From a virus (lineage: Duplodnaviria; Heunggongvirae; Uroviricota; Caudoviricetes), in the IMG/VR virus record IMGVR_UViG_2657245660_000016, positions 1 to 8,587 of that record: 8,587 bases of DNA, one strand, 5' to 3'. Position 1 is the stretch's first letter, and each line of letters begins with the position of its first letter. Under the pieces are notes generated by a model. The model searched no databases, was not told the origin of the DNA, and saw nothing but the letters and a program-made list of their open reading frames with translations. The translations under genes were made by a program, and so were the position numbers. Positions 1-7,472 of the stretch are shown piece by piece.

Positions 1-342
1 ATGATGAAAAAAAGTATTCTGGCGTTTCTGTTACTCACCAGTTCTGCAGCGGCGCTGGCGGCACCGCAGGTGATTACCGTCAGTCGTTTTGAAGTGGGTA
101 AAGACAAATGGGCATTTAACCGCGAAGAGGTGATGCTGACTTGCCGACCGGGTAATGCTTTGTATGTTATTAATCCGAGTACCCTCGTGCAGTATCCTTT
201 AAACGATATCGCACAAAAGGAAGTTGCCAGTGGGAAGACTAAAGCCCAACCCATTTCGGTGATTCAGATTGATGATCCTAACAATCCCGGCGAAAAAATG
301 AGTCTGGCACCGTTTATAGAACGAGCTGAAAAACTCTGTTAA
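1..342 (+). CDS. yebY: Small periplasmic protein with N-terminal signal peptide, DUF2511/YebY-like (113 aa)
   Basis: Complete ORF from position 1 to TAA at 340-342. The N-terminus [23 protein letters not shown] is a typical Sec signal peptide with an AxA cleavage motif. The translation matches my recollection of E. coli YebY, which lies next to the sdsR/ryeA sRNA locus, and the sRNA-like sequence immediately downstream supports that context. Start could be either of the two leading ATGs. Confidence 0.75.
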
Positions 343-500: not shown

Positions 501-603
501 GCAAGGCAACTAAGCCTGCATTAATGCCAACTTTTAGCGCACGGCTCTCTCCCAAGAGCCATTTCCCTGGACCGAATACAGGAATCGTATTCGGTCTTTT
601 TTT
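501..603 (+). ncRNA. sdsR: SdsR (RyeB)-like sigma-S-dependent small RNA
   Basis: About 100-nt ORF-free segment starting GCAAGGCAACUAAGCCUGCAUUAAUGCC. It contains three hairpins, including GGCTCT/AGAGCC at 543-560, and ends in a perfect 10-bp stem (570-579 with 587-596, loop AGGAATC) followed by a T7 run at 597-603. A -10-like CTATTCT at 488-494 sits about 7 nt upstream of the predicted 5' end. Sequence and position next to yebY match my recollection of sdsR/ryeB; not verified by search. Confidence 0.55.
570..603 (+). terminator. Intrinsic terminator of the SdsR-like sRNA
   Basis: GACCGAATAC (570-579) pairs perfectly with GTATTCGGTC (587-596); 7-nt loop; followed by TTTTTTT (597-603). Confidence 0.7.
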
Positions 604-636
604 AATTGTATTTAAAATCAATTAGTTGCAAACGTC

Positions 637-656
637 TCCCCGAAATTCCCCGAAAT
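637..656. repeat. Tandem 10-bp direct repeat TCCCCGAAAT x2 (candidate integrase arm-type binding sites)
   Basis: Exact copies at 637-646 and 647-656, followed by the related ACTCGAATTT at 659-668. They lie about 80-100 bp from the int stop, the typical position of P' arm sites in lambda-family att regions. Confidence 0.4.
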
Positions 657-734
657 TTACTCGAATTTCTGTATTCCGGTCTTTTTTGGTTATATCACAA
701 CCAAAATACATTTAACAATCCATTTACGTAAAAA

Positions 735-1811
735 TCAGAGCAGTAAGTACGTTTTTTCTCTCTCATCAAGATACAGTTTTGTTGTCTTCTCCGATGTGTG
801 ACCAAGTAGGCGCTGGGCAAATTCTTCTCCACATGTTTCTTTGTACAATCGTCCAGCCAGACTTCTGATCTCGTGAAAAGTTGGTGGGTTTTCACTGAAC
901 TGAATACCTGTTAATTTTCTGGCTGCGACAAATTTTTTTGTCAGGCCATCCGGGTGAATGCTGCCGTCAGGGCTGTTTTTTCTAATCCCGGCACTGATTA
1001 GATAATCTCCCCGGCTTACCAGGCGGCACCGTTCAACTACTGTACCAAGCCGTAGGCCAGCGACAGGAAGGCTGAGTGACAAGGGGATAGCAATCATCAT
1101 TCCTGTCTTAATTTGCCTGATGTGGAGACGATCATCATAAATATCACTGAACCGCATATTCGTTATGTCTTCGCGACGTTGTCCTGTTACAAGGGCTAAA
1201 TCCATAGCTAATGGGAACCATGCCGGAAGTTGATCTGCTGCCTCCCTGATGCAGTTGTATGTCTTTAGTTTCAGTCGTTCTCTTGTAACTACTATTTTCG
1301 GTGCTCTTGTTGGTGTTACTGGATTTTGAGATATACGTCCTTCAACAATGGCCTCGCGGAACATATCAGATAACACAGAACGCATTGATCCTGCCATCGT
1401 GTTTTTCCCTCCTTCAATCCACAAATCAAGAAACTCGGCAATATGGCGAGTGGTTATTTCTGTCAGTAAAACACCTCCTAATTTTTCTTTTATTGTCTCC
1501 AGTTGATTTACCCGAATTTTATAAGTATTTCTGGACACTTTTCTCCTTATAAGAATCGTTTTGTAACGTTCAATCCAGTCTGCCATAGTAAATGAGTCGA
1601 ACCCTTTTAGTTTTTCAATTAAGGCAGCAGGAGAGTAGTTTTTGTATATATAATGATTTGCTTCAATTGCCTGCGCTACTGCATCTCTTCTTGAAATTTT
1701 ACCTAGTGTAAATTCTTCTTTCGTCAGAGGGTTGCGCCAGTAATATGCTTTGTCCCTCCTTCGATATGTTAAGTTTTTAGGCAAATTGGGATCGTATTTT
1801 TTCCGCTGCAT
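735..1811 (-). CDS. int: Lambda-family tyrosine integrase (358 aa)
   Basis: The translation aligns by eye with lambda Int at both ends. N-terminal arm-binding region: PNLPKNLTYRR...YYWRNPLTKEEFTLG against lambda PPNLYIRNNGYYCYRDPRTGKEFGLG. C-terminal catalytic region: HEIRSLAGRLY...LLGHTSEKTTKLYLDERE against lambda HELRSLSARLY...LLGH, including the tyrosine-containing tail. The 3' end faces the att region. Confidence 0.93.
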   Translation of the reverse strand: MQRKKYDPNLPKNLTYRRRDKAYYWRNPLTKEEFTLGKISRRDAVAQAIEANHYIYKNYSPAALIEKLKGFDSFTMADWIERYKTILIRRKVSRNTYKIRVNQLETIKEKLGGVLLTEITTRHIAEFLDLWIEGGKNTMAGSMRSVLSDMFREAIVEGRISQNPVTPTRAPKIVVTRERLKLKTYNCIREAADQLPAWFPLAMDLALVTGQRREDITNMRFSDIYDDRLHIRQIKTGMMIAIPLSLSLPVAGLRLGTVVERCRLVSRGDYLISAGIRKNSPDGSIHPDGLTKKFVAARKLTGIQFSENPPTFHEIRSLAGRLYKETCGEEFAQRLLGHTSEKTTKLYLDEREKTYLLL

Positions 1812-2058
1812 GTTTTAACTTCTCCAGTAACGGACTGTCTCTCCCTTGTCGCCCATTAGGCTGATGGTGTGTTATATCGGTATCAACCTTATTTGGGTTG
1901 ATATAGAAAGCTTCCGGAACCACCCTGTAACTCCTCCCGTGTAGTTCAGGTGCAGGATAAATGTTTCCATTCCTTGCCCATCGTCTCAGCGTTGATATTG
2001 ATGGTGGGTTATCCGGATATCTGAGTTTTCCCCACGTTTTGAGTGTCACAAGATTCAT
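1777..2058 (-). CDS. xis: Excisionase (lambda Xis-like, about 93 aa)
   Basis: MNLVTLKTWGKLRYPDNPPSISTLRRWARNGNIYPAPELHGRSY parallels lambda Xis MYLTLQEWNARQRRPRSLETVRRWVRECRIFPPPVKDGREY. I place the start at the third codon of the tracked ORF (ATG at 2058-2056) because the SD AGAGG is then 7 nt upstream; the tracked ATG at 2064 is too close to the SD. The 3' end overlaps int by 35 nt. Confidence 0.8.
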   Translation of the reverse strand: MNLVTLKTWGKLRYPDNPPSISTLRRWARNGNIYPAPELHGRSYRVVPEAFYINPNKVDTDITHHQPNGRQGRDSPLLEKLKHAAEKIRSQFA

Positions 2059-2168
2059 TGCCATACCTCTTACGATATGACCGCCAGCCAGTAAATATAC
2101 AGAATACTGGCGGGTGTGGTTGATTTTTAATAATCAGCTATGAAGTTCTAATTTGTATATAATGCAAC

Positions 2169-7061: not shown

Positions 7062-7472
7062 TTTCTCTCACCTTTCATCACTGAAGTGAACTTTGTTGAT
7101 GCGGTGCCTGGTGCCTCCAGGTGACGTTAACCAGTTAACAATTAACGCCGGATAATCCACCCATAACACTGATGCTTTTAACTGTGCCGCGTGCGCTCAG
7201 CCGCATTCACCGCATCACAAAATTCACTTTAAAAAGGGGCGGCAGGGCAGCCACGGAGTAGAACTGATGCCGCCAAGACTACACACAGCAATGTCGTTAT
7301 TTACAACCGGAGGCGCACTCCCACCATTTAAATTTAACAGACAAGACCGACTCTTTATGGATATCGGAAATGCGCCTTCGTGTTGTGCCCGGTTTTATTT
7401 CACCACCTCCGGGCTTTGGTGGTTTCTGCTATACCCCTACAGCGAGAATATTGAATTAATCCAAATAATGGA

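Follow-up and report, generated by a model that had tools for sequence, protein, structure and literature searches.

Positions 569-734 of the DNA analyzed here (the "window", a stretch of 8,587 nucleotides) very probably form an attL junction (B-O-P′ arrangement) that marks the left end of a 55.6-kb lambdoid prophage with a lambda-family integrase and that arose by recombination between phage attP and the end of the small RNA gene sdsR. That a left prophage end should lie at the sdsR/RyeA terminator is mostly ordinary; the insertion hot spot was already known. On its phage side the junction carries a second copy of the 3′ half of the terminator, which belongs to the phage P′ arm, and a predicted extended −10 promoter directed toward the core that may drive a chimeric form of RyeA. 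SdsR is a conserved σS-dependent small RNA that represses tolC, mutS and ompD and is toxic when over-made, and it is opposed by the antisense RNA RyeA. Separation of RyeA from its promoter by a prophage can alter the balance between the two.

The host portion of the window begins with yebY (positions 1-342, plus strand), an open reading frame that corresponds to a YebY family protein in a genome of 100% identity (NZ_CP032811.1). SdsR/RyeB was located with Rfam model RF00111 at 504-603 on the plus strand, with a score of 118.1 bits against a gathering threshold of 38 and coverage of model positions 1-100 of 100. RyeA was located antisense to SdsR with SraC_RyeA (RF00101) at 607-463 on the minus strand, with 179.1 bits against a threshold of 37 over the full model. 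Note that the RF00101 model comprises only 145 nt and is blind to the displaced 5′ 40 nt of RyeA. Positions 372-413 probably hold a hairpin terminator that acts in both directions, serving yebY on the plus strand and RyeA on the other: when the minus strand is folded, its 3′ end shows a strong hairpin with a U run behind it, and RyeA 3′ ends in K-12 have been mapped to this region (Choi et al. 2019, PMC6610125).

An earlier reading made from the sequence alone (the "sequence-only reading") had placed a prophage at the SdsR/RyeA locus on the strength of a similarity of 500-603 to sdsR. The similarity is present, and the placement is borne out by the Rfam matches and by comparison of all four att sites. 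In BLAST alignments, E. coli homology ended near position 604 in all 5426 complete genomes. The junction was identical in 228 of the 5426 (∼4%), and an intact empty site was found in 5189, none of which contains a counterpart of 604-734; the possible colinearity of this segment with prophage-free genomes is thereby contradicted. A search for the other prophage end identified attR beside pphA, 55.6 kb away, with the common core ACAGGAATCGT. The position at which BLAST similarity to empty-site genomes stops was then refined to a crossover at 578-588 using attB from L002, attR from L003, attP from L004 and L005, and attL from the window. The only sequence that attB, attP, attL and attR have in common is the 11-bp block ACAGGAATCGT (578-588). 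On either side of this block a mismatch (T/A to the left and G/A to the right) segregates reciprocally, as is the case for a crossover within it. Because only ACAGGAATCGT is common to all four sites, the crossover is placed in or beside the loop of the SdsR terminator.

The terminator itself has the form of a recombination core, which spans 570-603 and corresponds to SdsR model positions 67-100. A perfect 10-nt inverted repeat (570-579 versus 587-596) is separated by a 7-nt spacer, and the two SdsR stem arms are laid out like inverted core-type sites, as read from the sequence. The left arm, GACCGAATAC (570-579, plus strand), is the host core half-site B and the 5′ arm of the terminator stem, and the 7-nt loop AGGAATC (580-586) is likely to be the overlap region. 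The right arm is the phage core half-site C′ (GTATTCGGTC), which together with a run of seven T residues makes up the first copy, GTATTCGGTCTTTTTTT, at 587-603 on the plus strand. The sequence-only reading was correct as to the position of this copy and as to a change from host to phage DNA at this locus. It erred in assigning 587-603 to the host, as the att comparison identifies the DNA from 589 onward as the phage's own version of the terminator 3′ half. This copy matches the attP of PP818812 exactly and departs from attB by two substitutions (G to A and C to T).

The integrase recombined phage attP with the last part of host sdsR, with the exchange inside 578-588. Because the phage carries its own stem 3′ arm and T run (587-603), SdsR is rebuilt as a chimera whose final ∼15 nt (589-603) come from the phage. 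The rebuilt attL hairpin has a predicted stability of −15.8 kcal/mol, equal to that of the native attB hairpin; the attP sequence alone gives −4 kcal/mol. For annotation, the true prophage boundary is to be corrected to 578-588. In strains with this junction, the final 15 nt of SdsR and all sequence upstream of RyeA are phage DNA.

The protein-coding genes that adjoin the junction are those of a lambda-type recombination system. The int gene (735-1811, minus strand) encodes a tyrosine integrase that matches PF00589 (61.4 bits), PF22022 (40 bits) and the arm-binding domain PF09003 (28.1 bits versus a cutoff of 22), and that shares 38.6% identity with lambda Int along 97% of its length. The adjacent xis gene (1777-2064, minus strand; PF07825, E = 6.5e-14) overlaps the start of int and is annotated as an excisionase. 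Related systems were collected for comparison in two ways. Querying genome contigs with the Int protein alone gave no more than two near-identical loci, and scanning viral contigs for sequence patterns yielded far more.

The DNA from 589 to the int stop codon is, by strong inference from its sequence, a phage P′ arm with the layout of lambda. A candidate IHF-like site H′, AATCAATTAGTTG (616-628, plus strand), matches the consensus WATCAANNNNTTR exactly; note that 29 of 200 shuffles of the window contain at least two matches to this consensus somewhere. The ATCAA of H′ is located at +34 nt from the overlap center, compared with +33 in lambda, and the pattern TCA...TT is kept across lineages. 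The exact tandem repeat TCCCCGAAAT (two units, 637-656) that had been proposed as integrase arm-type sites is followed directly by a third, degenerate unit, TTACTCGAAT (657-666). We assign the three units on the plus strand as predicted sites P′1 (637-646), P′2 (647-656) and P′3 (657-666). They occupy +54 to +83 nt from the overlap center, as in lambda. In scans of viral contigs, more than 20 lineages carried such a triplet at an equal offset, its units spaced 10 and 11 nt apart and its sequence specific to the lineage, and the repeat sequence covaries with Int residues 18-22. Position, lineage specificity and covariation bear out the proposal, and 637-666 are very probably arm-type sites for the N-terminal domain of Int. 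The P arm contains two similar motifs, near −150 and −128 nt relative to the overlap center.

The second copy, GTATTCCGGTCTTTTTT, is located at 671-687 on the plus strand, where the sequence-only reading had put it, and consists of a C′-like box (GTATTCCGGTCT) and a T run. It is the sole match at an edit distance of 2 or less in the 8.6-kb window. Chance matches were obtained in 0 of 3000 mononucleotide shuffles and in 2 of 3000 first-order Markov resamples of 604-760, which puts the chance frequency below 1 in 1000. The element is conserved in phage P′ arms: at least 14 lineages, with Int proteins 50-72% identical and with differing arm repeats, have it at an offset of +73 to +75 past the core. 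In the attP of two phage records, PP818812 and OK490361, the two copies lie in one contiguous sequence that continues to their left as phage P-arm DNA. Because the copies are contiguous in free-phage attP and the offset is fixed across lineages, the box is neither an integration scar nor native RyeA.

The second copy had been described as having no 5′ stem partner, and this holds: the hairpin that can form between P′3 and the box is weak, and its pairing is not kept across lineages. On these grounds we rejected a role as an intrinsic terminator; a terminator scan found only that of SdsR. A role as an inverted fourth arm-type site was likewise rejected, as the arm repeats vary among CCC, GTC and CAC without any accompanying change in the box.

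The reading that we prefer, on the basis of sequence, is that the box is an accessory core-type site for Int that overlaps a RyeA-like transcription start. Such a site for the C-terminal domains of Int could serve in wrapping or loading of the P′ arm, or as an operator through which Int represses the outward promoter. This we regard as plausible without its being probable. The box matches C′ at 11 of 11 positions with one inserted C, and the box of L089 is exactly GTATTCGGTCT. It begins 84 nt past the start of C′, or eight helical turns, and it is invariant where the arm repeats and the N-terminal residues of Int covary. As to variant host cores, three further viral-contig scans gave an equivocal picture: the box partially tracked them in L016, in L172 (GTACCCGGTGT, compared with GTGCCCGGTC as the B complement) and in L180 (both with GGG), and did not track them in L128 or L182. 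Two further observations weigh against an accessory site. Where the int stop codon abuts the box, the box is more degenerate (ATATCCTGTCT), and lambda attP, in which the int stop codon overlaps P′3, has no C′-like box in this orientation past P′3.

Just past the box is a predicted extended −10 promoter on the minus strand (689-718) that is directed toward the core, with a start at ∼682. The promoter consists of a −35 element TTGTTA (713-718), an 18-nt spacer and TG-A-TATAAC (TGATATAAC, 689-697), so the minus-strand promoter previously noted at 690-718 does exist as an extended −10 motif. The elements TTATAnCA, TT(A/C)ACA and TTTAC are kept in the non-coding spacer across lineages, in which "n" and the spacer vary. 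The extended −10 motif occurs in 28 of 48 flank clusters versus 2 of 48 in the opposite orientation, and is also present in decayed remnants. In both architectures it lies 2-6 nt from the box, which places +1 on the box itself. A second reading of the box, which we consider unlikely, draws on this position and on the motif counts: the box would be kept as the start and 5′ leader of a phage-borne RyeA-like RNA, for example as a single-stranded toehold for the 3′ arm of the SdsR terminator. Against a leader function, at least six lineages keep the box without a recognizable −10 motif (L009, L016, L033, L093, L172 and L180), and the predicted fold has the RNA 5′ end not free but paired to the arm-repeat segment.

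A generic σ70 scan of 340-900 did not flag 689-718. The same scan also missed the validated RyeA promoter in prophage-free sequence from K-12, so its silence is uninformative. The only match that the scan did return, at 632-605 (TTTGCA-16-TACAAT), scored no better than shuffled sequence and lies in the non-conserved spacer; we took it to be a chance match.

That the box is a neutral leftover, from an ancient duplication of the core right half in a common ancestor of these phages, is improbable. A natural variant, L066, in which an 84-bp deletion has removed the segment between the two copies, would fit a repeat that is merely recombinogenic. Deletion by Int was considered for L066 and rejected: the junction keeps the single-C GTATTCGGTC followed by TTTTTTGG, and because the exchange occurred in the shared GGTCTTTTTT rather than in the overlap region, we interpret the variant as a microhomology deletion. 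Set against neutrality, the box and its position are kept down to 50% Int identity, whereas the 30 nt that separate C′ from the arm sites can hardly be aligned across lineages that keep the box.

The two readings offered originally fare worse. A scar, that is, an att identity-block remnant from this or an earlier integration into this chromosome, would account for a direct repeat of the core right half only 84 nt away at a locus that has demonstrably been hit repeatedly, where several hosts have decayed phage ends as their native flanks; it is contradicted by the attP of PP818812 and OK490361 and by the shared offset in the diverged phages, from which it follows that the box travels with the phage and was not made in this host, and we hold it to be highly improbable. 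For the second copy as the native RyeA 5′ end of the host, the probability is close to negligible: a plausible minus-strand promoter does lie just beyond it and the Rfam RyeA model starts with the similar AAAAAGACCGAAUAC, but the comparison with 5189 empty-site E. coli genomes, in which homology ends near 604, contradicts this origin, and the K-12-defined −10 (ACCATA) and start are intact at attR in the same genome. The suggestion of a RyeA-like start at the second copy is accordingly retained in part, as a minus-strand promoter motif is found there; it is phage-borne rather than native, as 604-734 is absent from empty-site genomes.

Displacement of the RyeA promoter follows from the location of these elements. 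In K-12, RyeA starts ∼40 nt beyond the part covered by Rfam, and that sequence is now at attR. The K-12 −10 element is ACCATA according to the mutagenesis primers, and its mutation abolished RyeA (Choi et al. 2019, PMC6610125). In the lysogen this native −10 lies beside pphA, 55.6 kb away, as the earlier suggestion of a displaced or rewired promoter had anticipated. At attL, phage sequence stands in place of the native RyeA 5′ part and promoter. The −10 at 689-697 occupies a position analogous to that of the validated K-12 element, 40 nt farther from the core.

The minus-strand extended −10 at 689-697 would drive a chimeric RyeA. Its transcript would start at the box (∼682), cross the arm sites and core, run antisense through sdsR and end at the yebY terminator. 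The phage promoter would in this way replace native RyeA by a chimera of ∼315 nt, ∼40 nt longer than the original, and the native RyeA promoter at attR would now fire into the right end of the prophage. In S. flexneri, SraC is reported to be ∼35 nt longer, with a −10 that lies ∼35 bp further upstream (Frohlich 2012). A S. flexneri genome with the same P′ arm was found; this genome is other than that of the strain used for the published northern, BS176. The longer RyeA predicted here is consistent with that northern. If the phage promoter works, lysogeny would rewire a host regulator of stress and mutagenesis without breaking it, and the wide variation of RyeA between species, which SdsR does not share, would be explained as well.

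A broader proposal, which is tentative and which we regard as doubtful, is that lambda-like phages of the sdsR terminator carry a portable P′ arm module (a C′-like box with an outward extended −10) that restores RyeA. The K-12 RyeA promoter, TGTTATGGT, would then be a fossil of the last codons of an int gene, RyeA would be phage-derived and replaced by each newcomer, and through binding to the box Int could link the state of recombination with control of the toxin-like SdsR. Alignment of the K-12 native flank with the 3′ end of an L008-type int gave a score of 31 versus a null of 17.0 ± 2.4. Alignment of the same flank with the window's own P′ arm gave a score of 16 versus a null of 17.8, which is not significant.

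The system can be compared with several that are known. It resembles lambda in its three-domain Int with an arm-binding domain, in xis upstream of int, in an int gene that abuts the P′ arm, and in the inverted half-sites with a 7-nt spacer, the position of the candidate H′ and the three tandem P′ sites. It differs from lambda in that attB is an sRNA terminator hairpin rather than the gal-bio intergenic site, in the extra C′-like box after P′3, in a conserved non-coding stretch of ∼50 nt between box and int stop codon that includes a predicted outward extended −10 promoter, and in the orientation of both candidate P-arm sites, which is that of P′ sites. With respect to the toxin-antitoxin-like K-12 pair (Choi et al. 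2019, PMC6610125), the SdsR body, σS-type context and terminator strength are alike, as is a RyeA that is antisense and ends at the yebY terminator. Unlike in K-12, the validated RyeA promoter (−10 TATGGT, with TG two bases upstream) is at attR and not at attL, where the phage-borne extended −10 lies 40 nt farther out.

The earlier statement that this locus is an insertion hot spot agrees with published work (Balbontin 2008, J Bacteriol 190:4075, as described in the citing papers PMC7380047 and PMC3603311). According to these papers, the att site of Salmonella PhiW104 is the last 23 bp of ryeB, and in PhiW104 lysogens RyeA has an altered 5′ part, with RyeA levels decreased and RyeB levels increased. 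As far as those descriptions go, PhiW104 and the present prophage both target the terminator end of ryeB/sdsR, keep sdsR and replace the 5′ part of ryeA, and insertions are repeated in both cases. The present case differs in its E. coli host and in a four-way identity of 11 bp, which lies inside a segment of ∼28 bp that has 2 mismatches. Phages that integrate at the 3′ ends of tRNA, tmRNA and sRNA genes and supply a new 3′ end have been described more generally (Williams 2002, as cited in PMC3603311). Judged from that citation, the features held in common are a crossover at the loop of a terminal hairpin, an attP with the downstream half of the gene, and an RNA gene that is restored at attL. 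The target here is, by contrast, bidirectional, so restoring sense SdsR necessarily cuts RyeA from its promoter.

The early region of the element resembles that of the Rac prophage of K-12, with ralR/RalA, recT, recE and kilR. Rac is integrated at ttcA, whereas this element uses the sdsR site, and because of its integration site we classify it as a Rac-like mosaic rather than as Rac.

Rfam matches placed the SdsR/RyeB sRNA on the plus strand at 504-603 (118 bits) and the modelled part of RyeA/SraC on the minus strand at 607-463 (179 bits), with yebY at 1-342. Homology to the window extended to about position 604 in all 5426 complete E. coli genomes, the phage side was continued in 228 only, and yebY-sdsR-pphA was uninterrupted in 5189. 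These results support the proposal of a sequence-only reading that a prophage is integrated at the SdsR/RyeA locus. E. coli ERL03-1416 (NZ_CP032811.1) is 100% identical to the window and carries yebY followed by integrase, excisionase, ralR, recT, recE and kilR; the genes adjoining yebY are the early region of a lambdoid, Rac-like prophage. Rfam also identified the antitoxin RNA RalA at 2173-2351 (219 bits) and a copy of the DicF antisense sRNA on the minus strand at 7237-7287 (54.7 bits versus a threshold of 48), in the prophage immunity/early region. Note that the Rac-like early region (RalA plus the annotated ralR, recT, recE and kilR) reaches about 6500, and that the int/att module instead targets sdsR. 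The prophage has the look of a mosaic that joins a Rac-type early region to a different integration module.

Four att sequences were compared: attB from the empty site of ATCC 8739 (GGACCGAATACAGGAATCGTGTTCGGTCTCTTTTTATCTG), attR from the right prophage end beside pphA, 55.6 kb away (TTGTTGACGAAAACAGGAATCGTGTTCGGTCTCTTTTTATCTG), attL from the window (GGACCGAATACAGGAATCGTATTCGGTCTTTTTTTAATTG) and the contiguous attP of phage record PP818812, whose Int is 97.8% identical (TTGTTGACGAAAACAGGAATCGTATTCGGTCTTTTTTTAATTG). The sole block common to all four, ACAGGAATCGT (window 578-588), is the core shared with the other prophage end that the earlier reading had called for. Because the mismatches flanking this block segregate reciprocally among the four sequences, the crossover is placed inside it, and 589-603 is therefore phage DNA. 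Thus the terminator 3' half and T run at 587-603, previously taken as host sequence, lie mostly beyond the boundary; alignment to prophage-free E. coli does give host similarity to about 604, but the true breakpoint is further in. Within the block lies the SdsR terminator loop (7 nt, AGGAATC), between the arms of a perfect 10-nt inverted repeat (the stem); a lambda-type core is laid out in this way. On this comparison SdsR in this strain is a chimera, its terminator 3' arm and U tail supplied by attP. The rebuilt terminator hairpin folds at -15.8 kcal/mol, equal to the native -15.8, and the attP sequence alone at -4, with the hairpin not formed.

Int carries the lambda arm-binding (PF09003), central and catalytic domains, shares 38.6% identity with lambda Int across 97% of its length and is preceded upstream by Xis (PF07825). 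With offsets counted from the overlap centre at position 583, the P' arm contains a predicted IHF-like site, H', at 616-628 (exact consensus; ATCAA at +34 nt) and three predicted 10-nt arm-type units at +54 to +83 nt (TCCCCGAAAT, TCCCCGAAAT, TTACTCGAAT); the offsets of lambda H' and P'1-P'3 are essentially equal to these. When viral contigs were scanned for the core, at least 120 loci were returned, and among the matches listed their right flanks formed dozens of clusters. Most listed clusters with a downstream Int 50-72% identical to that of the window have the same P' plan, in which the triple repeat keeps its 10- and 11-nt spacing and constant offset while its sequence is lineage-specific (CCCCGAAAT, GTCCGAAAAT, CACGAAAA, CCACCAAA or TCTCGAAAT). 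Int residues 18-22 track the 5' part of the repeat: CAC occurs with x-Y-K/R, GTC with (A/S)-R-K, and CCC with R-D-K and similar. Such covariation is expected of sites read by the N-terminal domain and, with the offset, supports the earlier suggestion that the tandem TCCCCGAAAT represents integrase arm-type sites, although the predicted sites number three and not two. The 30-nt stretch separating C' from the arm sites can hardly be aligned in the same lineage set.

Both repeats described earlier were found in place. The second copy of the terminator 3' half (a C'-like box plus T run, 671-687) was the only match in the window at an edit distance of 2 or less; when 604-760 was randomised, 0 of 3000 mononucleotide shuffles and 2 of 3000 Markov resamples held an equally good match. 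Both copies are present in the contiguous attP of PP818812, and the second also in the attP of Salmonella phage ZC-S1_prp, which has 73% DNA identity to window 560-1900. Judged from these att sequences, the second copy belongs to the phage, and both copies are assigned to attP. Within 150 nt after the core, at least 14 diverged lineages have their best match to GTATTCGGTCT at +73 to +75 (exact in locus L089), and the consensus (A/G)TAT(T/C)C(n)GTCT is kept while the adjoining arm repeats change. From the start of C' to that of the box is 84 nt, or 8 helical turns. A role as a core-type Int site is attractive for the box, but its covariation with variant host terminators is equivocal. The sequence-only reading offered two origins, native RyeA 5' sequence or an att remnant. 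Neither stands as written, since the box belongs to the phage attP and is constant across diverged lineages; its carriage in free-phage attP also contradicts a scar made in this chromosome. A terminator was rejected by terminator scan and folding, and an inverted arm-type site because the box and the arm repeats show no covariation.

In one attL variant (L066 8431-8670; IMG/VR UViG_2728369554_000022) a deletion has removed exactly the 84-85 bp that separate the copies (..CGTATTCGGTCTTTTTTGGTTATATCAC..). Its junction lies within the shared GGTCTTTTTT, indicating a microhomology deletion and not a site-specific event. The deletion takes out H' and all three arm sites, so this prophage is probably locked in. 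All 15 of the 15 best-matching complete E. coli genomes listed keep the extra ~84-85 nt and lack such a deletion.

In the architecture of the window the int stop lies ~50 nt past the box (offset 134-140), and the intervening non-coding spacer holds three conserved blocks, TTATAnCA, TT(A/C)ACA and TTTAC. Read on the minus strand, these give an extended -10, TGnTATAA(C/G) with n = A, G, C or T, and a weak -35 17-18 nt upstream. The putative phage promoter of the window (minus strand; -35 TTGTTA at 713-718, TGATATAAC at 689-697) has its predicted start at ~682, on the box. A second architecture has the int stop directly against the box; the final int codons there (..Y V M V stop) are TGTTATGGT. 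Searched for as its plus-strand image, the motif was found in 28 of 48 flank clusters among the matches listed, a count that takes in 15 decayed flanks without arm repeats, and the opposite orientation in 2 of 48.

A published mutagenesis primer replaces ACCATA in ..TAGTCAACCATAACACAC.. of K-12 with CTCGAG, and the mutant lacks RyeA (PMC6610125); as read from that primer, the K-12 RyeA -10 is exactly this extended -10 element. The K-12-type RyeA promoter is intact but lies at attR, pointing into the prophage. The phage -10, the sole candidate at attL, is more distant from the core by 40 nt and would yield a RyeA of ~315 nt versus 272 nt in K-12. The earlier idea that the RyeA promoter was replaced or rewired therefore holds as to displacement; replacement by a phage-borne promoter we infer. 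For S. flexneri BS176 and Salmonella, Frohlich et al. reported an SraC longer by ~35 nt and a putative -10 located ~35 bp further upstream, and the same P' arm is present in an S. flexneri genome, which is suggestive, not proof, of a phage-borne RyeA start. The 5' end of the Rfam RF00101 consensus (AAUUAAAAAAAGACC) fits the phage-type flank at window 597-607 and not the K-12 flank (AGAUAAAAAGAGACC), which suggests that lysogen or remnant-type sequences dominate the seed.

Alignment of the K-12 flank to the 3' end of int from L008-type phages scored 31, versus a null of 17.0 ± 2.4, so the native sdsR-pphA spacer, too, is probably an old phage end. The aligned spacer (2347-2411 of L002, a prophage-free E. 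coli sdsR-pphA locus) includes the validated RyeA -10 ACCATA, and the resident RyeA promoter looks like a fossil phage end. The pattern AACCATAnCA...GTCCAG...TTTTT is kept in flanks from other hosts (L018, L022, L030, L086, L114). An old phage end fits the published view of repeated insertion at this site.

That the locus is an insertion hot spot, as stated in the earlier reading, is published: Salmonella phage PhiW104 integrates into the ryeB/sdsR end, replacing the 5' part of ryeA and altering RyeA/RyeB levels (Balbontin 2008, as cited in PMC7380047). A survey of prophages in E. coli and Salmonella also cites the ryeB/sdsR end among known sRNA targets, and "RyeB" serves as a site name in island catalogues. 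The present finding is an E. coli instance of a known integration type; the family-wide anatomy with a C'-like box at fixed phase, the conserved outward extended -10 and the link of the phage -10 to the validated K-12 RyeA promoter may be undescribed. A second, unrelated integrase family at the same core (L049, L130, L131, L156, L181, L183-L186) underlines the hot-spot character of the site. Its members have CCTGTT-type arm repeats without a C'-like box and also occur in hosts with variant stems (GACCCGATAC, GACCAAAGAC); the 362-aa ORF of L049 had no blastp similarity to the window Int at E ≤ 1e-3.

Several minor observations were made. Two sdsR-type cores lie 8.3 kb from each other on L021, a 10.5-kb viral contig; directly before the second (~8835-8885) there is a tandem hexamer run, (AAACGG)n, in the position expected for a P arm or sdsR. 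PP818812.1 is labelled as an Actinobacillus pleuropneumoniae phage ('Actinobacillus phage vB_Apl-pPE4'), yet its attP matches an enterobacterial sdsR terminator; given this and the 97.8% identical Int, the host assignment looks doubtful. In the P arm of the prophage, the core segment AATACAGGAAT recurs as an exact 11-nt copy (36209-36219 of L003, the attR end), ~185 nt left of the attR core. The copy is not conserved in the 97%-related PP818812, which has ACTCATAGAT at that place, and could be chance or a recombination trace. Also in L003 (5450-17816, outside the window), a ~10-kb insert splits the terminase large-subunit gene and encodes its own tyrosine integrase, primase, SSB and a ClpP-protease/capsid fusion, resembling the helper-embedded satellites (HE-PICI) of PMC10111431.
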